From a virus (taxonomy: Duplodnaviria > Caudoviricetes), in IMG/VR virus record IMGVR_UViG_3300034062_005626: a DNA stretch of 64,000 nt. One strand, 5' to 3'. Position numbers and translations under genes: made by a program. Each line of letters begins with the position of its first letter. Position 1 is the stretch's first letter. Shown piece after piece: positions 25,567 to 50,674 of the stretch. The notes under the pieces are model-generated. The model had not been told where the DNA came from and ran no database searches. It saw only the letters and a program-made list of their open reading frames with translations.

Positions 25567-27159
25567 TTAAGATAAACCTATTTTTTGTAAAGGCATATAC
25601 TTTGGTGACCCGTTTACACTTATACCGTTACATGTTGATGGGGTTATAGTTACATTTGTTATTGTTACTGTATCTAAAATATAACCTTCAAGTTGACAAC
25701 CGTTAAATTCTATACTTGGAGTATTAATAAACTGAGTAATAGTACCGTTTATAATTCCTCCTGATGAAATACTTGCAGTGTATGTATTTGTAAATGAACT
25801 ATAATTTATATTAGATAAATTACAAGAAGGTCTAGTTTGTGAACTAGTAGTAACCACAGAGTTTGTTGGAGTACTTAAAGTTGCATTACCTGATGTTGTT
25901 GCAGTTATAGAATTTGTAATAACAGGTACGTTTGTTACGAAAGTTTTTCCTGTAAATCCAACGGCAGTATTAATTGTAAAGTTTACTGTTTTTCCTGCCG
26001 GTAATGTTGGTGTAACGTTTATTTGATAATACCAAGTTTTGGTAGTTGTAGTACCAACATTAGTTTGATTTGCCAACGGAGTTAAACTTAAATTAAGTGT
26101 ATAGTTTGTATAAGAATTTTGTGGTGTAAGTGTTACTGACTGAGTTGTTACTGTGTTATTAGTATCTTTTATATAAATTGTATAATTACCAGCAGCCAAA
26201 CCTAAAAATGTATTTGACATTTGATAATTAACTCCATTGATAGAATACGTGTAAGATGGAACTCCTCCATAACCCGTGACATTAATCACACCGTTAGATG
26301 TGTTAGAACAAGTTGGTTGTGTTGTTGAAACTGATAAAGTTAATGGCGGTGTTGTACAAACTCCTGTTGATACAAATACAGTACCTTGATATGTTCCAAG
26401 TAAAGACCAATTACCTGTAGGTGGCGTTGTTGGTTGTAATAAAGCGGGAACGCCAGGATTAGTCCATCCGCTAACTTCCCATCTTGTATTTCCTGTACTA
26501 TAGAATACCGTATAAGTTGAACTTGTCCAAGACGGGTAACCATTGATTGTTGAACCGCTGGTTAAAGTAGTTAAATACGTTGTATTAAAAGAAGGTGTAT
26601 ATTCAAAACATAAGTTTTGTGGGTATACAGGTGCTGGTGTCGGTGGAGGTAAACAATCTGAACAAGTGTCAAATGGCCCTGTAGATATTACTGCAAAATT
26701 ATTAATATAACTTTGTCCTGTATATAATGTTTGACCACTATGAGTCCAACAACCAACTTGACTTGTTAAACTGTACACTTTACCATCAACGAATTTTGAA
26801 GGTAAATCTGCAACATAATAAACAAAAGTTCCTGAATTTTCACAGTCTTCAAACTGTTCTAAATAGAAACTATCATAATCAACTGAACAAGTTGTTTGAC
26901 CTGTAAAATCACCATAATAATCTATAACTGTTGCAGTATAATTACCAGGTAGTAAATTAGTAAGTAAAGAACCTTGAGCCCCGTTACTCCAATTTATAGT
27001 ATAAGGTGGAGTTCCTCCTGTTACGTATAAGGTTATTAGACCATTAGTTGAATCAGGTGTTGACGCATTAATACTATCACAATCTAAACCTAATGGTAGA
27101 AGTGTTATTATATTACAACTATTTCCACTTAATAAACCCATCTTACCAAGTTGCCCCAC
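25567..27159 (-). CDS. Tail-associated protein with SprB-type repeats (start may be 27141)
   Basis: NGLITLYVTGGTPPYTINWSNG and QPTCSNTSNGVINVTGYGGVPSYTYSING modules; Cys-rich. Confidence 0.65.
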   Translation of the reverse strand: MGQLGKMGLLSGNSCNIITLLPLGLDCDSINASTPDSTNGLITLYVTGGTPPYTINWSNGAQGSLLTNLLPGNYTATVIDYYGDFTGQTTCSVDYDSFYLEQFEDCENSGTFVYYVADLPSKFVDGKVYSLTSQVGCWTHSGQTLYTGQSYINNFAVISTGPFDTCSDCLPPPTPAPVYPQNLCFEYTPSFNTTYLTTLTSGSTINGYPSWTSSTYTVFYSTGNTRWEVSGWTNPGVPALLQPTTPPTGNWSLLGTYQGTVFVSTGVCTTPPLTLSVSTTQPTCSNTSNGVINVTGYGGVPSYTYSINGVNYQMSNTFLGLAAGNYTIYIKDTNNTVTTQSVTLTPQNSYTNYTLNLSLTPLANQTNVGTTTTKTWYYQINVTPTLPAGKTVNFTINTAVGFTGKTFVTNVPVITNSITATTSGNATLSTPTNSVVTTSSQTRPSCNLSNINYSSFTNTYTASISSGGIINGTITQFINTPSIEFNGCQLEGYILDTVTITNVTITPSTCNGISVNGSPKYMPLQKIGLS

Positions 27160-28747: not shown

Positions 28748-29038
28748 TTATTGAAAGTTATATGGTATTCCATCTTGAAATTCAAAACATATTAGGTCTT
28801 GAAACTGTTTATAGTTACATAAACTATCAGAACAGAACTCACAACCATTGCTGTCTATTATTTTAACAACATAACTATCCATCGATTCAAAGGAAACAGG
28901 TAATGTAAATGAATATGGAACTGAAGAAATTGTTGCAATATATTGACAAGTTCCGTATATCCCACATTCGTCACAAACCCAAATATCGTATGGACTTGTT
29001 CCTGAAGTTATTGTATTTAGTGTTACTATTGTTGCCAT
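28748..29038 (-). CDS. Single-module SprB/Ig-like protein with C-terminal FQD repeats
   Basis: SGTSPYDIWVCD...VKIIDSNGC; paralogue of 33584 and 33875. Confidence 0.65.
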   Translation of the reverse strand: MATIVTLNTITSGTSPYDIWVCDECGIYGTCQYIATISSVPYSFTLPVSFESMDSYVVKIIDSNGCEFCSDSLCNYKQFQDLICFEFQDGIPYNFQ

Positions 29039-29042
29039 TTTT

Positions 29043-30650
29043 TTAACATACTCCGTTTACTGTGCAAAACTCGGTGATTACACCACTGTTGTCGACACTA
29101 TAAATTTTATTTCCGTATCTAATATAATCAATCGTTAATGGATATAATAACGATGAATTACTATATACTGTTACTCCTGTTTGTATTTGATTAACTGATG
29201 GATGAGTGTAGAATATTGTTTGTAATCCAAAATTAGTTAATTGACATCCAGGGCAATTAACCGAATATGCTCCATTACCAATCCATTCGTTAAATGTTCC
29301 AACAAGTGGTTCAACTTGTAGACACTCTGCACAATCAACATAAGTTGTGGCAGTAGTCGCTGTAAATCTATTTTCATTTACCACAATATAACCTGAAGGT
29401 GGAACATAATTTATGAAGTATCCTACATAACTATAACAATTTCCAGAATAATCTCTAATTACTTCTCCCGGGTCTAAATTAGTTGGTGGGGTTGCTGTTT
29501 GTGTAATCATCGATGTTGTCGTACAAGATGTAAACACAAAGTAAGTACCAGGTGCGTAAGTAGGTGTTGGGGTTGGTGTTGGTGTAGGTGTCGGAGTCGG
29601 TGTAGGTGTCGGAGTCGGTGTAGGTGTAGGTGTTGGGCAAATCGTACAAGCGGTATATGCTGAAACCACTAACTTAACTGTTGCATTAGGACTTGCTGTT
29701 GTATCTTGTATATATGTTGCACATTTTAATTGGTCATTAATAACCCCTAAGAATGTTTGTCCTGTTGATATTGGTGTGCCTGATAATTCCAAAGGACCTG
29801 AAACGTAATAAGAAACGTTTTCGTTACAATCTCTTAATTCCTTAACTCTAAAACATATAAAGTTTCCATCGTCTATTGTAAATGTTACAGTTTCACCAGT
29901 CAAATTGATTGTTGGTGTAGGAGTGGGTGTTGGGGTTGGTGTTGGTGTTGGTGTTGGTGTTGATGCACTAACACTAATGTTTACTGTAAAAGCACTACAT
30001 ATATTTGGAGTTGGTGTTGGTGTAGGAGTCGGGGTTGGTGTTGGTGTAGGAGTCGGGGTTGGTGTTGGTGTCGGCGCATCACAATCAACATCATATGAAA
30101 AATCAAAAGTATCACATACAGGAGTTGGTGTTGGTGTTGGGGGAACACAATCACCAGGATAAAATAAGTCGGTAAAAAGATTTGGACAAACAGAAGTCGT
30201 TGGGTTTTGTCCGTAGAAGAAACAATTTGTACCAGGTGCTGTACCTAAACACCATTTTGTAGCACTTTTATAGATATACCCTGGTTGTGTTCCTCCTGTG
30301 AAAAAGGGGAATCCGTTATATCCTCCCGCAACAACATATGTTCCGGTGTATGCAGAATATTCATCTTTATTTATTACAACACAATATTTATTAGAACAAC
30401 ATTCTCCTGTTGCACAACTTGAGGCGGTACATCCTGTTTGTAGTCCATATGTTCCATTAGGTACATAACTTGTTGCGGTAAACCCTGACGTAAACGCAGA
30501 AACAATTGAATAACATCCACTTACAACAGATGCATCATAAGTAATATAATAAACAGAAGTTACAGCCGAAGTCCCAGCGGTCCAATTAGTTTGGTTTGTA
30601 AAATATTGTAAACCGGGGTAACAACAACTCTGTAAAAGTATATTTGCCAT
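29043..30650 (-). CDS. Cys-rich fibre-like protein with four Pro-Thr repeat tracts
   Basis: (PT)n linkers between Cys-containing modules. Confidence 0.7.
29560..30144 (-). repeat. Coding (Pro-Thr)n tracts at about 29560-29637, 29911-29961, 30006-30077 and 30121-30144
   Basis: ggtgtt/ggtgta/ggagtc hexamer runs. Confidence 0.9.
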
Positions 30651-30665
30651 TAAATTTTCTTTTTA

Positions 30666-30673
30666 TATAAATA
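30666..30673 (-). promoter_or_regulatory. Putative late-promoter motif TATTTATA
   Basis: Upstream of the PT-repeat gene. Confidence 0.5.
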
Positions 30674-30694
30674 ACCCAAAGTTTTTTTTTGCAT

Positions 30695-31492
30695 TTAAAA
30701 CTCCAAATTTATTTCTTCAGGTTTATAACAGTAAAAATGTTTGTATGCATGAATAAATGCAACATCTTTTTGTTCTTCCATAGGTACTGACCATCCTGTT
30801 TTATCCCACCAATTTCCTATATTTTTGTCTTCGTATTGTGACCAATCATCCCATGGTCCCCAAGTAAATCCAAAAAATTGAAATAAAAATGAAAGAGTTG
30901 CATCACACCACTCCACAGGCCTTGAGTCTAATTTATATATTTCGTCCCAAGGTACTTCACCTAATCTATTATATATTTCTATAAACTTTTCTCTATTGAA
31001 AATTGCACCACCACAAGCCCCATAATTTTCTAAAGACCCTAATTCACTCCAAACGTGTCTTGAGTTGTCTTTAATATTAAATTTATTTTTTAGATATTCA
31101 TACAATTCTTTTGTGTAATATGGTCCATAAGCTCCTGATATATCAAACTTTGGTGGTATTGTTATTTCACATTTACACCAAACATCATCTTCATAATGAA
31201 TAATCCATTCAACGTCTTTAAGTGTTGTTAGACAAGCCTCATATATTCTTGTCAACCACCGATATAATCCATCTTTATCAACAAAAACTTTACCTGAATG
31301 TAGGTTATTAACTCCTTGTTGTTTAATCCAAGTGTAGTCACAATTAAATTTTTTTGCCACAGGCTCTAATAACTCCGAACCATCTTCAAATAAAGAAATT
31401 GGTGCGTTTGGATAAAATTTTCTAAACTGTTCAATTGCTTTATAACAAGCAACTAATTTATGACCTGATTGGTAAAAAACCCCTATATTCAT
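30695..31492 (-). CDS. Putative GT-A fold glycosyltransferase
   Basis: FRKFYPNAPISLFEDG, WIIHYEDDVW (DxD-like), GACGGAIF. Confidence 0.6.
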   Translation of the reverse strand: MNIGVFYQSGHKLVACYKAIEQFRKFYPNAPISLFEDGSELLEPVAKKFNCDYTWIKQQGVNNLHSGKVFVDKDGLYRWLTRIYEACLTTLKDVEWIIHYEDDVWCKCEITIPPKFDISGAYGPYYTKELYEYLKNKFNIKDNSRHVWSELGSLENYGACGGAIFNREKFIEIYNRLGEVPWDEIYKLDSRPVEWCDATLSFLFQFFGFTWGPWDDWSQYEDKNIGNWWDKTGWSVPMEEQKDVAFIHAYKHFYCYKPEEINLEF

Positions 31493-32730
31493 ATTTCACC
31501 TGTAATTTGTTTAACCCAACCACTTTGTCTATGGTGTATCCAAATTGACCAACTTTTTGTTGTTCTATCCACCAAGAATGTTCTTTTTATATTTACGTAA
31601 TCACTTTTTACTTCATACAATTCTTTGATTTCATTACTATTGGCATCTTGTCTATAAATTTCATTTCCTAAATCGTCCAAAAATGAAATTGCCCAAAAAT
31701 CATAATCATCTTCAGGGGCTTCTAATCTTGGAACAATTATATTGTATGTAAACATAAAACTTTCTTTTTTATGCCAATCAGTTTCATCATTAATGGGTGG
31801 ATTTTCACCTTTCAATGTCTTTGGATGTAATTTTCTATCTAAAAAATTAATACCCGCATACAATTCATAATCACGATGAGTTCTTACATTACCTAATCCA
31901 TATTCCCCCAAGTCAATACCATGGTCTTCTTCTTGTAACATGTGTCTAAGTCTTATTTTGGACTTAGTATCCATTTCCCACCATGGTTCTTCAACTACCC
32001 CACTTTGTTTGTTTTCCTCATTAAAATCCGTCCAATGTTTTGTTCTACCTTCTCTTGTGTATTCATGCCAAACAACTGTTTTATGTGGGTGAAATAAATC
32101 ATAACCTAATGTATATGACCTAATAGATAAACTGATTTCATCACCAGCAAAGTAAATGTTGGGGTCATACTTATATTCTTCACAATGTTTTCCAATCGTA
32201 AAGAAAAAGTGACCACTAACAAATCTTGCAGGTATTGGTTTATCTAACTCTTTCCAATTTGGAATTTCGTGAGGTCTAAACATAATTGTTCCTCCCGGTG
32301 TGAAGTTAGATGCAACCATTTTGTATGGCTCAACATTTAATAATTTATTAGTTTTGGGTTCATACATGCCTGCATATGCAGTAATGATTGGTTTTTTTGA
32401 ACCTGTCATTTTCATCATTTCAATCAACTCAATATCCCAATCCTGTAAGAATCTATGGTGTGAATCTAATTGTAATGTGTATTCTTCTCCGTTCCATAAT
32501 TTTTGAATTTCTGAACGAGCCCAACACAGTCCTTTACTTTTTGACCAATGATAATCTAATATTTTGAATCTTTCGTCATTTGCAAATTCTCCCATAGATT
32601 CATTTTCATCTCGTTGCCAACAAATACCAAAGGTTAAATTCTCAGGGTTTTTTGCCTTTGAAATGCAGTCTCTGATTGTCGGTAAAAGTTCGGGGTCTCT
32701 ATAAGACGCAATTTGGACAAATATTTTCAT
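31489..32730 (-). CDS. Polypeptide GlcNAc-transferase-like protein (Gnt1/GT60 family)
   Basis: IFVQIASYRDPEL..TI, SKGLCWAR, EEYTLQLDSHHRF, FVSGHFFF, YFAGDEISLSIRSYTLGYDLFHP, VWHEY. Confidence 0.85.
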   Translation of the reverse strand: MKIFVQIASYRDPELLPTIRDCISKAKNPENLTFGICWQRDENESMGEFANDERFKILDYHWSKSKGLCWARSEIQKLWNGEEYTLQLDSHHRFLQDWDIELIEMMKMTGSKKPIITAYAGMYEPKTNKLLNVEPYKMVASNFTPGGTIMFRPHEIPNWKELDKPIPARFVSGHFFFTIGKHCEEYKYDPNIYFAGDEISLSIRSYTLGYDLFHPHKTVVWHEYTREGRTKHWTDFNEENKQSGVVEEPWWEMDTKSKIRLRHMLQEEDHGIDLGEYGLGNVRTHRDYELYAGINFLDRKLHPKTLKGENPPINDETDWHKKESFMFTYNIIVPRLEAPEDDYDFWAISFLDDLGNEIYRQDANSNEIKELYEVKSDYVNIKRTFLVDRTTKSWSIWIHHRQSGWVKQITGEI

Positions 32731-32744
32731 ATTATCATTTTAAA

Positions 32745-32752
32745 CAAAAATA
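32745..32752 (-). promoter_or_regulatory. TATTTTTG (TAnnTTTG) element upstream of the glycosyltransferases
   Basis: Matches the -7 box only; no matching upstream TTTG seen. Confidence 0.3.
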
Positions 32753-32777
32753 ATACCTCAAGACTAAAAATAAATAA

Positions 32778-33560
32778 TTAAACTTGTGTGATTGTAACAA
32801 TCAAAGATGGAATGGCCGGTCTAGTGGGTGATGTAAAAGGTCCTGCATCATATTGTAAACCTAATCTTGTGTCATCTACTCTAAATTTTAATTCTAAAAA
32901 TTCATTGGCTGAAAGGTCTATTACAAAATTCCAAGCAGCTACAGTTCTACCATTATTAGAATTTACGACAACTTGTGTATTTGAGTTAGTAACATTACTA
33001 CCATTTTTAGCTAACCATATATCCATAGTTTGTGCTGAACCACCACCTGTTGATTCTAATTGAGCGGAAAATTGTAAATTATAAACACCGGCACTTGCAA
33101 CAACAAATTTTGTATTTGCCGATAATGTTACACCATTAGAACCAGTATTGGTGTCCGCACTCATAGAAAACGCACTAGAGGTACTTGAAACATATTGGTC
33201 CGTTGTGGACAAAAAAGACCCCCATGCTCTACCACTACCATCGACGCCACTGGTTCCGTTAGTTCCGCTAGTACCATTTGTACCACTGGTTCCGTTAGTT
33301 CCGCTTGTGCCGTTAGTTCCGCTAGTTCCACTTGTACCGTTAGTTCCCGAGGACCCGCTAGTTCCATTTGTACCACTGGTTCCTGAAGACCCATTAGTTC
33401 CATTTGTGCCTGAAGTTCCGGCAATTGATGCAGTTATAGCACTAAATGGTACTGCTTCTGTTCTACCTGATATTATTGGATTGTAATTTACAATTACCAA
33501 TAATGAATTAGAGTAACCTGTCGATGCTGCAGGTAAGGATGATATTGGTAAATCCGGCAT
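32778..33560 (-). CDS. Collagen-like fibre protein with beta-rich (BclA/C1q-like) C-terminal domain
   Basis: MPDLPISSLP N-terminus; about 20 G-(T/S)-(S/N) triplets; AGVYNLQFSAQL C-terminal domain. Confidence 0.7.
   Translation of the reverse strand: MPDLPISSLPAASTGYSNSLLVIVNYNPIISGRTEAVPFSAITASIAGTSGTNGTNGSSGTSGTNGTSGSSGTNGTSGTSGTNGTSGTNGTSGTNGTSGTNGTSGVDGSGRAWGSFLSTTDQYVSSTSSAFSMSADTNTGSNGVTLSANTKFVVASAGVYNLQFSAQLESTGGGSAQTMDIWLAKNGSNVTNSNTQVVVNSNNGRTVAAWNFVIDLSANEFLELKFRVDDTRLGLQYDAGPFTSPTRPAIPSLIVTITQV
33243..33423 (-). repeat. Coding Gly-X-Y repeat (GTS/GTN/GSS)
   Basis: 9-bp periodicity. Confidence 0.9.
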
Positions 33561-33583: not shown

Positions 33584-33871
33584 TTAAGTTATTTTGATTC
33601 TAAAACCATCTTCCTGTAATATATAAAAACCAGTTTCTTGTAATAAATAACTTCCACAATCCACTTCTATTTCCATGATACAACCATTAGCATCTATAAT
33701 TTTTATATATATAACATCTTCATTTGGAAAAAAAGATTCTGAATTAATAACTACATTTGGTGGTATTGAAGTAACTCCTGACACATAAAAACAATAGGTA
33801 TTTGATGGGTCACAAATGAAAACATCATAAGGACTTAATCCGCTAGTTACTCCTGTTATTTGTATATTCAT
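33584..33871 (-). CDS. Single-module SprB/Ig-like protein with C-terminal LLQETG/ILQEDG repeats
   Basis: SGLSPYDVFICD...IKIIDANGC. Confidence 0.65.
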   Translation of the reverse strand: MNIQITGVTSGLSPYDVFICDPSNTYCFYVSGVTSIPPNVVINSESFFPNEDVIYIKIIDANGCIMEIEVDCGSYLLQETGFYILQEDGFRIKIT

Positions 33872-33874
33872 ATA

Positions 33875-34084
33875 TTAACAATTTATTTCATAAAAAGTTT
33901 CACAACCATTACCATCAATCGCTTTTATTATTAAGGTATTTGCTGCAGAATAAAATGCAGATAAAACATAAACGGTAAGTGTTGTACCAAGTAATGAACA
34001 ATTATTTCCGTTTTCATCACAAACGTAATAACTAACGGGTGGTGTTCCTCCTGTCAATCCTGTTATGTCAACTGAGTACGGCAT
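33875..34084 (-). CDS. Single-module SprB/Ig-like protein
   Basis: ITGLTGGTPPVSYYVCD...IKAIDGNGC. Confidence 0.65.
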   Translation of the reverse strand: MPYSVDITGLTGGTPPVSYYVCDENGNNCSLLGTTLTVYVLSAFYSAANTLIIKAIDGNGCETFYEINC

Positions 34085-36388
34085 CTATGTATAACAAGTT
34101 ACATCGTAGTCTATTGTTAATTCTAAAGTGAAGTTAGCATCAGCCAATGGGTCGGTGTCTCCCTCACAATTTGATTCAATGTGAATTGTATTATCTGTCA
34201 AACTTATAGTATAACTACTAATATCAGTAACACCACTTAATATCCCTTCTATTGTTGATTGCCAAACAGTGTCTTGTGGAACATCATTCAATGTTGTTGC
34301 GGTATAGAATGTTTGAGTAAATGCACTTCCGTTAATATTCATTTCAAGTATAAATTCTGCAGTATTTAAACTACATCCCGTATATCCACTTGTAACATCA
34401 ATATACCCCTCATTTAACATTTCTAAAAATCCACGTTTAGCCCCAACTGTTGTTGCAAATTCATTTTGACACAATTCAACAACAGAGTATGTTGTTACAT
34501 TATTTCCTGAACATGTGATTGTAAAATTGTGAGTTTGTGAACATCCGCGACTGTCTGTAACTTCAACAGAATACGTACCGGCGGTTAAACCGGATATAGT
34601 TGAACCCGTTTGTCCTGACGGAACATTATCTGACCAATCATAACTAAATGTTGGTTCTCCGTCGTATATTAATACTTGCGCAGTTCCATTTTGACCACCA
34701 TAACATTGTGTTGTTGATATTGCACTAATTAAACTACCTCCCGTTGATATTGTTACTTGTTCATCAATTTGACATCCATCTGCATCAACAACTGTAAGAG
34801 TATAACTACCAGCCACTAAATTATTAAAGGTATATGAAGATAATGATGTATCTAATACTGATTGACCGTCACTTAATATATAGTCCAAAGGTGATGTGTA
34901 ACCAGTCCCAACTTGAACTTGTAAAACACCATCATTTTGTGAACATGTTGAACCAGTTGTTGTTGCACTTATTTCAAACTTATCAGTAGATGCCAACGTA
35001 ACAGTTGTTGTGTATTCACAGTTTGTTCCTGTTGCAGATATAATTAAGTCATACGTATCATTTGTTAAACCTGAAAACGTACTAGTTAAACTTTGTGTTG
35101 TATTGGTATATACTAAACCGTTCGTTTGTCCCGATAATATATAACTATAAAAATTATTTGAACCTTGTAATGAAACAGTTAATGAACCAAGTTGTTGACT
35201 ACAATTAGAATTAGTTACTACCGTATCAACTATAAAAAATGAATTTTCAGCATTAATAAATGCACTTATTATTTGTTTACAAAAGTTCGCATCTGTAATT
35301 TCTAAATTGTAATTTCCACTTGATAAACCTGATAAGGTTAATGTATCGCTTAATGTATACCCTACTTGTGATGTGCTGGCGGAATAATAATAAGGGACAC
35401 TACCCCCTGTAATTGTAAATGTAATACTACCGTCTGATGAAAAACAAGAAGGATTTACAGAAGTAACAATACCAACTCCAAGTGGGTCGGCTTCACCTAT
35501 AGTATCACTTTTAGTCACCACACAACCATTACCATCAGTTACAGTACAACTATAAGTTCCAATTGTTAAACCTGTTATTGTTTGACCCGTCTCACCGTTA
35601 TTCCAAAGATATGTGTAAGGTGATGTTCCTGTAAGTCCTGTGATTGAAAGTTTACCTTCATTAATCACACAAGTAGACGTATTTACTTTCCAAAAACCAA
35701 AATCAAAATTTGAAGAGGATGAAACAATTGCGTTAGATGTTGTTGCAGTTGACAACCCATAATCCACAACTTGAACAAAATATGTGTCCGCAGATAGATT
35801 TGTGAATGTATAAGGGAACAAAGTTGTTACTTGTGATTCAACAGTACCTCCTGATGTGGATAATATTAAAGTATAAGGCGACATTTGAGAGTCGGCACTT
35901 ACAGTTAGTGTTCCATTATTTTCTCCACATGTGGTTGGTGTTACGTCAATAATGTCAGTATAAAAACAACCTGTTATAATAACGTTTATATATAATTCGT
36001 TATTTTCAAACCCTTCAGAATCATTTAACCTAAACACATAGGTGTCGGCGGTTAATCCTGAAAATGTTATTGGACTTGATGACGTTTGAGCACTTATTCC
36101 ACCAGGTTGTATATTATCTATTGTGTATGGAGGTATTCCACCATATGGTGAAAATGTTACAGAACCCGTTGGGGATGAGCATGTACCTGTGATTGTAAAT
36201 GTTAGTCCTAATGGTTGGTCATCGCAAGTTGGTGTACAAGCGGACATTGTGTTATAAACACCAAATGTTGATGCTGAGTACGCACTATCAAAACAAATAG
36301 TTTCCCCTAAAGAAACTCCAACTACAAAGTTACCACAACAATCATAGTACCTATATACCCCATCCGTTAAACCCGAAAAACAAGCCAT
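34085..36388 (-). CDS. Tail-associated protein with tandem SprB-type repeats
   Basis: Repeated TC...DG.I....TGG..PY.Y....G...L..G.Y...VTD.NGC modules. Confidence 0.75.
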   Translation of the reverse strand: MACFSGLTDGVYRYYDCCGNFVVGVSLGETICFDSAYSASTFGVYNTMSACTPTCDDQPLGLTFTITGTCSSPTGSVTFSPYGGIPPYTIDNIQPGGISAQTSSSPITFSGLTADTYVFRLNDSEGFENNELYINVIITGCFYTDIIDVTPTTCGENNGTLTVSADSQMSPYTLILSTSGGTVESQVTTLFPYTFTNLSADTYFVQVVDYGLSTATTSNAIVSSSSNFDFGFWKVNTSTCVINEGKLSITGLTGTSPYTYLWNNGETGQTITGLTIGTYSCTVTDGNGCVVTKSDTIGEADPLGVGIVTSVNPSCFSSDGSITFTITGGSVPYYYSASTSQVGYTLSDTLTLSGLSSGNYNLEITDANFCKQIISAFINAENSFFIVDTVVTNSNCSQQLGSLTVSLQGSNNFYSYILSGQTNGLVYTNTTQSLTSTFSGLTNDTYDLIISATGTNCEYTTTVTLASTDKFEISATTTGSTCSQNDGVLQVQVGTGYTSPLDYILSDGQSVLDTSLSSYTFNNLVAGSYTLTVVDADGCQIDEQVTISTGGSLISAISTTQCYGGQNGTAQVLIYDGEPTFSYDWSDNVPSGQTGSTISGLTAGTYSVEVTDSRGCSQTHNFTITCSGNNVTTYSVVELCQNEFATTVGAKRGFLEMLNEGYIDVTSGYTGCSLNTAEFILEMNINGSAFTQTFYTATTLNDVPQDTVWQSTIEGILSGVTDISSYTISLTDNTIHIESNCEGDTDPLADANFTLELTIDYDVTCYT

Positions 36389-48835: not shown

Positions 48836-50674
48836 TTAGTAGAAGTCTACGGTTCTTAGTTGTTTTACCCTTACATTAATATCTCTAGAATCAAATCTGA
48901 TTTGATATATTTGGTCTGGTTCGGCAAATAAGGTGTCGTCAATTAATAAAATTTCTTTGGTTTCCGCATCGGCGTACCTTTGAGATGTTTCAGATGACGA
49001 ATATTGACCCCCTGTTCTGTTATATATTTTCAAATCTGTTAATGTATTAACACCTGCAACGTCTTGTATTAATCTTCTAATATCAGAAACGTTTACATTT
49101 TGACCTAAATCTCTGTTTTGCGGATTCATGTAAGTTGATACTTGGTCAATAATTTGAGTAATTATTTGACTTTGAGCGGTATTATTTTCGATTACAACAG
49201 ATATTTCAAACTCTAAATCTATTACCTTTGCGACATCAATTGATATGTAGTCATTTATCATTCTATACTTAGACAAATAGGTTGCCAAGTTTGTTTTAAT
49301 TGCGTTTGGAACTGTTTGTGTTAGATTCCCGTCTGAATCATATGATAAAATTTGTACAGTAACTTTGTTATTATTTTCTGTAATCGCGACTTTGGCAGGT
49401 GCCCCAAATTTACCTGGCATTGTATCGATTAAAGATTTATAGTCATTAACTGTCACCGCTCTTTTTTGTGCCGCAAAGTTAAAACTAACCATGTTTCTTG
49501 CCTCTTCAATTGTTGGTTGGTTTGCTCCTCCAACCGCACTTGTTACATTATTAATTTTTAATGATTGTACAACACTTTGATTGATTTGTGATGATGGTCC
49601 GTTTACCGCTAAATTAACTAATCCAACTTGGTTGATTGAACCAACACCAACATTTGATGCAGTTCCTCCACCTACTCGGTACTGAACAAATAGTGTTGTG
49701 TTAGGTGTTACTGTAAGTCCCAATCCGATATTATTTTGATAATTTTGTATTTTTAATGGGGTTCCAAGATTTGCAAATTGTTGAAGTTGTTGATTTGGTG
49801 TTGTCGTTGCTGCCCCAAATTGTACCTTCATATAACTTTCGGGTGTGTATTCTGTTATAAATCTGTTGTCAGTTTTTATATATTGACCAACTTTAACGCC
49901 AGCATTGTCTATTGGTTTTGTGGGGTCCTCAATAAAAACTGTGTCTTCCGCCAATGCGTCAACTTCATACCATTTGTTCTGTGATGTTATAAATTCAGCA
50001 TTTGTTGGGGTTGATTGGTATTGTGTTCCGTCTTTTTGTATGATTGTTGTAACAGACAAAACATTCTTTTCAGGTAAAAAGAAACTATAGAAAGGAACTA
50101 CGTCTGCAGCATTTACAACTTGTTTATATATTTTAGTAACACCATTAACAACAACTTCTCTTTTAGTTATTATATAACTTGTTATTTTATTATTGTTGTC
50201 AAAAACAGGGGTTTTGGTTCTATTATTTACCCCTTCGTTGTTATATTGTGTAGAAAAATCAACATCATAGACTGTTTCAAATGTTTGCCCTCCACCATTA
50301 AACTGAGCCCCCGCTCTTAAAATACCTAAGTATCTTGAATCTTCATTGTCACCAAATGCCGGAACTTGTATTGATATTTCCACAAGAGCAACTGAAGGTC
50401 TAAATCCCGGTATTTTCAAACCATAGGTTCTTGCAATATTAAAAATAGAAGACCTTTGTTGTGCATATTGTAAGACAGTTTCTTGAATACTTCTATCGAT
50501 ATGAAAATGTAAATTATCTCCAATCGCAGCATTTAAATCCATCAAAACTGAAAAGATTGAAGCGTCATTAAAATTTTGAATTATTTCAGGATAATACTGT
50601 TGGGTATAGTTGATTAAGTCCTTTCTTAGACTTTCAAAATCCCTACTTGTATAATTAATTTTTTGAGTTGCCAT
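48836..50674 (-). CDS. Baseplate wedge subunit (T4 gp6 / baseplate J-like)
   Basis: INYTSRDFESLRKDL, NFNDAS, AQKRAVTVNDY. Confidence 0.85.
   Translation of the reverse strand: MATQKINYTSRDFESLRKDLINYTQQYYPEIIQNFNDASIFSVLMDLNAAIGDNLHFHIDRSIQETVLQYAQQRSSIFNIARTYGLKIPGFRPSVALVEISIQVPAFGDNEDSRYLGILRAGAQFNGGGQTFETVYDVDFSTQYNNEGVNNRTKTPVFDNNNKITSYIITKREVVVNGVTKIYKQVVNAADVVPFYSFFLPEKNVLSVTTIIQKDGTQYQSTPTNAEFITSQNKWYEVDALAEDTVFIEDPTKPIDNAGVKVGQYIKTDNRFITEYTPESYMKVQFGAATTTPNQQLQQFANLGTPLKIQNYQNNIGLGLTVTPNTTLFVQYRVGGGTASNVGVGSINQVGLVNLAVNGPSSQINQSVVQSLKINNVTSAVGGANQPTIEEARNMVSFNFAAQKRAVTVNDYKSLIDTMPGKFGAPAKVAITENNNKVTVQILSYDSDGNLTQTVPNAIKTNLATYLSKYRMINDYISIDVAKVIDLEFEISVVIENNTAQSQIITQIIDQVSTYMNPQNRDLGQNVNVSDIRRLIQDVAGVNTLTDLKIYNRTGGQYSSSETSQRYADAETKEILLIDDTLFAEPDQIYQIRFDSRDINVRVKQLRTVDFY

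Follow-up and report, generated by a model that had tools for sequence, protein, structure and literature searches.

A GT60-type glycosyltransferase linked to Pro-Thr tracts in phage tail-fibre loci: a putative cytoplasmic mucin-type O-glycosylation cassette

Among glycosyltransferases (GTs), family GT60 is seen as belonging to protists, in which it starts mucin-type glycans; to our knowledge, only a few mycobacteriophages have been shown by experiment to glycosylate their own virions. Here we describe a four-gene cassette at positions 29043–33560 of a 64,000-nucleotide stretch of phage DNA (the window; IMG/VR virus record IMGVR_UViG_3300034062_005626, Caudoviricetes), in which a predicted GT60 enzyme and a second predicted glycosyltransferase, which we call GTx, are flanked by a protein with four (Pro-Thr)n tracts (the PT protein) and by a collagen-like tail-fibre protein. 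The conserved link is that of GT60 with Pro-Thr (PT) tracts and not with the collagen-like gene. We estimate a probability of roughly 60% that the cassette is a phage-encoded, cytoplasmic mucin-type O-glycosylation system, in which glycans are initiated by GT60 on threonines of the (PT)n linkers and lengthened by a second, variable transferase.

Mucin-type O-glycans of protists are started with alpha-linked N-acetylglucosamine (alpha-GlcNAc) by GT60 enzymes (PMC8724618). TcOGNT-2 of Trypanosoma cruzi and Gnt2 of Dictyostelium share with the phage enzyme the PF11397 domain, a GT-A core and a DxH motif; they take the first step, which others extend, by adding alpha-GlcNAc in the presence of Mn2+ to threonine in proline-flanked, threonine-rich, mucin-like stretches (PMC3769586, PMC8724618). 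The T. cruzi GT60, which is Mn2+-dependent, glycosylates threonine in KPPTTTTTTTTKPP (PMC3769586). Unlike these membrane proteins of the eukaryotic Golgi, the phage GT60 lacks a membrane segment and has an additional beta-domain of ~90 amino acids (aa) at its C-terminus, and it would act in the bacterial cytoplasm on virion proteins. Dictyostelium Gnt1, the best fold match, is likewise a soluble cytoplasmic GT60 after which extending transferases come; it differs in modifying one hydroxyproline on one protein and in needing a prolyl hydroxylase, whereas the suspected phage acceptors are repetitive threonines and no hydroxylase was found in G001, a near-complete genome of a relative. The nearest solved structures are those of the animal polypeptide N-acetylgalactosamine (GalNAc) transferases (ppGalNAc-transferases, GT27), which share the DxH motif and prefer threonine or serine near proline. 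Unlike the phage enzyme, they use a GalNAc donor, bear a C-terminal ricin-type lectin domain and reside in the Golgi, and sequence identity is 11–16%.

Repetitive tracts of comparable composition are glycosylated elsewhere. The collagen-like fibres of Bacillus (BclA) and C. difficile (BclA3/SgtA) and the Pro-Thr linkers of bacterial cellulases are O-glycosylated, and stiffened or protected against proteases; the phage tracts are likewise repetitive and threonine-bearing, and the transferase families and compartments differ. For phage enzymes that modify their own structural proteins, the precedent is the mycobacteriophages Che8, Corndog and Myrna (Freeman et al. 2023), in which capsid and tail-tube subunits are glycosylated, according to PMC12363180. 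That system, as described there, also differs in its GT families and its actinobacterial hosts, and it was demonstrated by experiment, whereas the present one is predicted from genes.

An earlier note on this DNA, made from the sequence alone, had proposed that two enzymes, an initiator and an extender, coat both flanking fibres. The four open reading frames (ORFs) that it named are all present on the minus strand, with the limits given here, and all four of the (Pro-Thr)n tracts claimed for the PT protein were located:

29043–30650, minus strand: PT protein, 535 aa, 28 cysteines, four (PT)n linkers between globular modules; proposed main substrate
30120–30140, minus strand: PT tract 1, aa 171–177
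30006–30074, minus strand: PT tract 2, aa 193–215
29913–29960, minus strand: PT tract 3, aa 231–246
29559–29636, minus strand: PT tract 4, aa 339–364
30695–31492, minus strand: GTx, predicted second glycosyltransferase, 265 aa, GT-A fold (structure model)
31184–31192, minus strand: codons E101-D102-D103, candidate DxD motif of GTx, invariant in 35 homologues
31489–32730, minus strand: predicted GT60 polypeptide O-HexNAc (N-acetylhexosamine; probably alpha-GlcNAc) transferase, 413 aa, soluble (PF11397, phrog_24687 and fold)
32458–32466, minus strand: codons D89-S90-H91, DxH metal-binding motif of GT60, invariant in 23 orthologues
32778–33560, minus strand: collagen-like tail-fibre protein, 260 aa (PF01391); variable cassette, possible second substrate
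33231–33419, minus strand: proline-free G-(T/S)-(S/N) tract, aa 48–110, 21 triplets

The first enzyme had been read as Gnt1/GT60-type, and both its sequence and its predicted fold agree with this. It matches Pfam PF11397 ('GlcNAc') far above the cut-off (E 2.8e-67; 228.1 bits against 21), a match confirmed at genome level with 186.5 bits, and the phage glycosyltransferase family phrog_24687 covers it end to end (E 2e-105). The AlphaFold model (pLDDT 81, pTM 0.79) has a GT-A core (aa 1 to ~306) followed by the beta-domain (aa ~325–412). The best match to this model in Swiss-Prot is Gnt1 (Q8T1C6; E 1.9e-21, TM 0.64, 25% identity, aa 2–306), and the next 29 are all ppGalNAc-transferases, as are the best 35 matches in the PDB, with T4 and T2 foremost (Foldseek E 5e-11 and below, at the identities given above). 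A sequence search of the PDB gave no significant match, the C-terminal domain alone reaching 7aeb_Y at E 0.18. In an alignment of 23 orthologues (48–97% identity), D12, D89-S90-H91, G196 and E198 (in GDEIS), D211, H214 and H222 are invariant, and the DSH motif lies between strands 84–88 and 92–94 of the model, the usual position of the DxD in GT-A enzymes. The model opens directly with the first catalytic strand; no membrane segment was found in the protein, the highest 19-residue Kyte-Doolittle mean being 0.49, and there is no type II anchor. Because there is no hydrophobic segment, the phage enzyme resembles the cytoplasmic Gnt1 and not the Golgi enzymes. Co-prediction of GT60 aa 1–320 with residues 186–250 of the PT protein scored 0.01, which is not evidence either way.

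The C-terminal beta-domain (window 31489–31758, aa ~325–413) occurs among the orthologues in at least two unrelated-looking versions. Two loci (L044, L048) share the version of the window, though their catalytic domains are only ~50% identical to that of the window, a distribution that suggests domain swapping. By analogy with the ricin domain of the ppGalNAc-transferases, this domain might target substrates.

What would such an enzyme act on? Two surveys of gene neighbourhoods point to the PT tracts. In the first, IMG/VR was searched with GT60, which gave 45 loci; the order GT60, an optional second gene and an orthologue of the PT protein with 15–36 PT dipeptides was found in ~36 of them, and the collagen-like gene 5' of GT60 comes and goes. 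The second survey was anchored on a conserved, unrelated 737-aa neighbour, which gave 63 unique loci, and GT60 was counted within 10 kb. It is present in 41 of these, and every one of the 41 carries ORFs with (PT)≥4, the PT orthologue lying 3' of GT60. Among the 22 loci without GT60 within 10 kb, PT tracts are found in 15 and are lacking in 7 (Fisher p = 3e-4, uncorrected). The collagen-like gene lies directly upstream of GT60 in 9 of the 41 GT60-positive loci; elsewhere, it is absent, swapped for other fibres or shifted downstream. Thus, of the linkages that the earlier note had wished to see surveyed, that of GT60 with PT repeats is strongly conserved and extends to unrelated PT partners, and that with the collagen-like gene did not hold.

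These unrelated partners are found where GT60 occurs outside the syntenic arrangement. In such contexts it adjoins PT-rich ORFs of 974 aa (L030), 674 and 333 aa (L036), 1001 and 747 aa (L038), 1703 and 269 aa (L045), 1314 aa (L138), 1754 aa with short tracts (L139) and 547 aa with 41% S/T/P (L147). With the tracts masked, no similarity remains among these proteins, except for one pair of paralogues, or between them and the PT protein of the window, so that outside synteny GT60 has about eight PT partners that are not homologous.

DNA that encodes (PT)4 is rare genome-wide, and a reversed-pattern control gave 0 matches in every genome searched. Every (PT)4 site of G001 (292 kb, 99% complete) lies within ~2 kb of GT60. 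All matches but one in G002 and G003 fall in the fibre block near GT60, as does one of the two in G004, the other lying ~40 kb away. In G005 (295 kb, 98% complete), GT60 has moved by 170 kb and now heads an operon of GT10, GT11, GT25 and GT61 enzymes; one of its two (PT)4 sites lies 0.8 kb from the relocated gene and the other in the fibre block. G007 has neither GT60 nor (PT)4, and of five large relatives whose fibre block lacks GT60, four have the gene at another site. The run in G005 (70000–89000; L138), in which GT60, GT10, GT11, GT25 and GT61 follow the 1314-aa PT-tract protein, looks like a complete operon for a fucose-containing glycan in a 295-kb phage.

The second enzyme, GTx, had been suggested to be GT-A-like, which the fold bears out without any sequence-family match: family models place GT60 in PF11397, and for GTx neither a Pfam match at E ≤ 0.1 nor a PHROG match was found. 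Its 128 homologues are metagenomic and all without names, and none of the 120 listed has a Pfam domain. The AlphaFold model (pLDDT 89.8, pTM 0.90) matches GT6 (ABO transferases, BoGT6a) and GT24 with Foldseek at E ~1e-7 and probability 1.00, and clusters of GT8, GT24 and GT6 in AFDB. Many GT-A enzymes align with it in VIA-align at Z 10.5–13.6 over 160–230 residues; among them are inverting ones (C1GalT1, B3GalT5, Fringe, SpsA) as well as retaining ones (LgtC, glycogenin). As to its class, Foldseek favours the retaining families (GT6, GT8, GT24) and VIA-align ranks inverting families (GT31, GT2) equally high. Invariant in 35 homologues are E36, E101-D102-D103, C160-G-G, H248 and K251, with D37 in at least 90%; the EDD motif directly follows strand 96–100 of the model. 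No membrane segment was found in this enzyme either. On the strength of the model, GTx is a GT-A glycosyltransferase of a family absent from the curated libraries Pfam and PHROG.

GTx is probably a glycan extender. Its start overlaps the stop of GT60 by 4 nucleotides (nt), and it is always found 3' of GT60, even among distant members; homologues with 41–42% identity lie in operons that GT60 heads and that also contain methyltransferase, GT25-like and GT11 genes. In the first survey, the slot after GT60 holds GTx in 21 loci, always overlapping the end of GT60, HtrL_YibB in two (L044, L048), GT2 with a weak GT8-like gene in two (L031, L038) and a GT32-type DXD enzyme in one (L045), and it is empty in ~14. 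An initiator-plus-extender layout, as proposed earlier, fits these observations, since GT60 stays constant while the next gene is swapped or absent. Where GT60 itself is missing, the slot before the PT protein is filled by other glyco-enzymes: GT29 (L061, L067, and L063, assigned by a near-identical N-terminus), GT34 (L072, and as a methyltransferase-GT34 fusion in L119) and FkbM methyltransferases (L114, L124), L114 also encoding a hexapeptide acyltransferase and DUF6625. The GT29 genes (L061:5200–5787, L063:5222–5824 and L067:5227–5817, opposite strand; 195–200 aa; PF00777 E 1.6e-22 in L061) belong to what we take to be a mainly eukaryotic family of sialyltransferases, unusual in phages.

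Isolated phages with a GT60 orthologue are only XacN1, Xoo-sp13, CM1 and RAS14 (34–40% identity). XacN1 resembles the window in having a full-length orthologue, ORF334 (38.9% identity), together with (PT)4 in large ORFs, and differs in that the neighbours of ORF334 are replication genes and a carbamoyltransferase gene. XacN1 has six (PT)4 sites, in ORF325, ORF384, ORF232, ORF236 and ORF237, and Xoo-sp13 has four; ORF325 (3313 aa) directly follows the baseplate wedge genes, 9 kb from ORF334. At least two bands of XacN1 virions are positive with periodic acid-Schiff (PAS) stain, which the authors attributed to phage transferases; they did not identify the proteins and drew no link to GT60 or to PT tracts (PMC5852040). 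In Xoo-sp13 (L003) and XacN1 (L004), the orthologue is always followed 3' by a carbamoyltransferase of 765 aa and by two small ORFs that have no annotation, which suggests a carbamoylated glycan; the two ORFs after the Xoo-sp13 carbamoyltransferase were considered as GTx counterparts and rejected, having no similarity to it. In the literature, we found nothing that links GT60 to phages except for a CAZy listing in one virome preprint, and nothing on glycosylation of PT repeats in phages.

How might the cassette work? Late in infection, as the tail-fibre operon is expressed in the host cytoplasm, GT60 would move a HexNAc to threonine hydroxyls of the (PT)n linkers, both in the neighbouring cysteine-rich protein and in other PT-bearing virion proteins; this sugar would most likely be GlcNAc, drawn from UDP-GlcNAc, of which the cell has an abundant pool. 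GTx would then add a second sugar. In relatives, other transferases or entire GT/methyltransferase operons would take the place of the extender, so that the glycan would differ between strains. The likely benefit would be that the linkers become stiff, hydrated and resistant to proteases; the tail apparatus might also gain a glycan surface that varies. A second cysteine-rich PT protein is encoded on the same contig (G000 93552–95867, minus strand), ~28 kb past the end of the window; it exceeds 771 aa, is open at the contig end, contains a PT tract of 26 residues as well as shorter P/T/A runs, adjoins a 942-aa ORF, and is another candidate substrate.

A wider and more tentative version of this proposal, which we would not expect to hold in full, treats (PT)n as portable 'glycosylate here' tags, read by a conserved GT60 initiator on many unrelated virion proteins of large phages with Gram-negative hosts. 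Fast-exchanged extenders (the new GT-A family, HtrL, GT2, GT10/11, GT25, GT29, GT34, methyl- and acyltransferases) would then give each strain a specific coat, and the proline-free collagen-like fibres would be stabilized as well.

Several observations weigh against the proposal of threonine-directed glycosylation of the PT linkers. Fifteen loci keep PT tracts with no GT60 within 10 kb, and the second PT protein of the same contig lies ~60 kb from GT60; the PT tracts could therefore be plain linkers, independent of the enzyme. A PT neighbour is absent from three sets of non-syntenic GT60 contexts (L031, L039/L049 and L140). In XacN1 and Xoo-sp13, the orthologue adjoins DNA polymerase, RNase H and carbamoyltransferase genes and not fibre genes. 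Loci of one clade are not independent, and no phylogenetic correction was applied to the statistics. Only its gene position assigns the PT protein to the virion. Its N- and C-terminal globular parts match only viral hypothetical clusters in the ESM Atlas (scores <0.9). The donor sugar, the linkage and the acceptor are all inferred. Finally, Gnt1 is the sole GT60 entry in Swiss-Prot, so the fold match cannot separate threonine- from hydroxyproline-directed subfamilies.

Does the cassette also coat the collagen-like fibre? If both flanking proteins were modified, which would be compatible with the proposal above, coating of the G-(T/S)-(S/N) tract could be a chief function of the cassette, its glycans stabilizing a triple helix that has no proline. 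The protein matches PF01391 Collagen with 35.3 bits (cut-off 27.2; E 9.5e-9) and also tail-fibre PHROGs (e.g., phrog_5073, E 1e-11). About 20 triplets had been reported, and 21 were counted, without interruption (9 GTS, 8 GTN, 2 GSS, 1 GVD and 1 GSG); none of the 63 residues is proline, so the tract is not rich in proline or hydroxyproline at X and Y. The tracts of relatives are all proline-free as well, with G-(T/S/I/L)-(S/N) repeats of 10–100 triplets, threonine or serine typically standing at X and serine or asparagine at Y. In Riftia, glycosylated threonine stabilizes a collagen poor in hydroxyproline, and BclA-type collagen-like fibres carry O-glycans. In the window the gene abuts GT60 with a gap of 47 nt, and collagen-like tracts occur in 12 of the 41 GT60-positive loci and in 0 of the 22 GT60-negative ones (p = 0.005, uncorrected). 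This co-occurrence is suggestive of a link, but it is confounded by relatedness and comes without conserved adjacency: the GT60-positive loci are also the closest relatives, and the 12-versus-0 split may reflect phylogeny alone. Adjacency in only 9 of 41 loci means that linkage does not mark the collagen-like gene as a substrate, and no collagen-like neighbour was found in the non-syntenic GT60 contexts. Furthermore, the characterized GT60 acceptors are proline-flanked threonines, and the collagen tract has no proline. It is thus doubtful that the collagen-like fibre is an additional substrate, and similarly doubtful that the cassette coats both neighbours; of the earlier suggestion that the enzymes coat the flanking fibres, the part concerning the PT protein stands as a strongly conserved linkage, and the part concerning the variable collagen-like gene does not.

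The same tract contains eight NG(S/T) motifs, the number given before, which had been listed as sequons. The motifs arise because GTN-GT(S/N) repeats generate them automatically, and no N-glycosyltransferase-like gene was found in the cassette; the idea of N-glycosylation at these sites was set aside on both grounds.

It is rather improbable that the PT tracts are ordinary bare linkers, with an adjacency to GT60 that reflects inherited synteny and an enrichment of PT in fibre genes, and that the transferases modify some other virion protein, such as the capsid or tail tube. Most of the supporting loci do come from one syntenic clade, PT tracts are present in further proteins of the fibre block and in relatives that have no GT60 nearby, and the mycobacteriophage substrates are capsid and tail-tube subunits (PMC12363180). 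Against this reading stand the non-homologous partners in non-syntenic contexts and the near-confinement of PT tracts to the GT60 neighbourhood in two near-complete genomes of ~290 kb, and the PT protein keeps glyco-enzyme neighbours where GT60 has been replaced.

Many phage glycosyltransferases modify DNA or host polysaccharides, and the transferases of the cassette could likewise act on a non-protein acceptor. This could be phage DNA, or else host envelope glycans, altered so as to mask receptors or exclude superinfecting phages; that the genes lie in the fibre block would then be incidental. GT clusters of jumbo phages have been interpreted in terms of capsule modification (PMC7824862), and the orthologues of XacN1, Xoo-sp13 and RAS14 all lie in similar replication-gene surroundings, with DNA polymerase, RNase H, NUDIX and carbamoyltransferase genes among the neighbours. 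On the other hand, all characterized GT60 members use polypeptides, the nearest solved folds are peptide-binding enzymes, neither enzyme of the cassette has a membrane segment, and GT60 recurs beside PT tracts on unrelated scaffolds; the genes also belong to a late structural operon in which there is no terminator-like site. A non-protein acceptor is quite unlikely.

Least probable is a Gnt1-like route (as for Skp1, or of the plant extensin type), in which prolines of the PT tracts would first be hydroxylated and GlcNAc then added to hydroxyproline: the best characterized structural match is indeed the hydroxyproline-specific, soluble, cytoplasmic Gnt1, the tracts are 50% proline and the relative G005 encodes two PF13640 oxygenases, but a PF13640 prolyl-hydroxylase-type gene was found neither in the contig of the window nor in the 99%-complete G001 with the same cassette (a host enzyme may supply the activity), and the match to Gnt1 does not discriminate between subfamilies. 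Because there is no such oxygenase in the contig or in G001, threonine is more likely to be the acceptor in this clade than hydroxyproline.

The cassette under discussion sits in a late tail-fibre operon. The DNA of the window comes from an IMG/VR viral contig of 95.9 kb (G000) with a CheckV completeness of 32%, which makes a jumbo phage of ~300 kb probable; the DNA has a GC content of ~31%. Near-identical DNA of the 4.5-kb cassette is present in 20 lake and freshwater metagenome runs (2016–2024), and a megablast of the cassette against 50,697 phage records, among which the record of the window itself may be missing, gave 0 matches. The genes of the region lie on the minus strand throughout. 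As had been claimed, the cassette lies inside a tail-fibre block: a baseplate/tail-fibre module spans from a gp6-like baseplate wedge (48836–50674, minus strand; phrog_219, E 2e-21) down to ~23323, and is bordered by replication-type genes (NrdAB, DnaB, primase, exonuclease). No terminator-like site was found at 28–35 kb of the window, and a scan for sigma-70-type promoters was uninformative (28 sites against 31.8 expected).

Other features of the block may be noted. Small ORFs of 69–96 aa (28748–29038, 33584–33871 and 33875–34084) lie between the fibre-type genes, in an order kept in nearly all related loci. Several proteins of the block contain SprB-type repeats (PF13573), including the large fibre-block proteins at 25567–27159 and 34085–36388; such repeats are associated with gliding adhesins of the Bacteroidota, and in these two proteins they may be a clue to the host or a sign that adhesins are mimicked. 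The ORFs at 29905–30162, 33148–33486 and 33195–33386 (plus strand) and at 33161–33424 (minus strand, other frame) were rejected as genes, being shadows of the PT and collagen repeats that they overlap; on the opposite strand they read GVGV... and PLVPLV....

If the proposal is true, a whole clade of abundant freshwater jumbo phages decorates the Pro-Thr linkers of its tail proteins by means of GT60, and cultured jumbo phages of Xanthomonas and Stenotrophomonas do likewise, with extenders that differ strain by strain. PF11397 together with (PT)n would then be a sequence rule for recognizing phage glycoproteins, and PT tracts, which are common but ignored in phage fibre genes, would be explained. 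GTx would add an uncharacterized GT-A family of more than 100 members, and XacN1 or Xoo-sp13 offers a tractable test system. Through decoration of this kind, adsorption, stability and immune recognition could vary in a further way that current genome annotation misses. Should (PT)n tracts indeed act as tags with exchangeable extenders, variation in tail glycans would amount to a hidden layer of variation in host range or in the evasion of defence.

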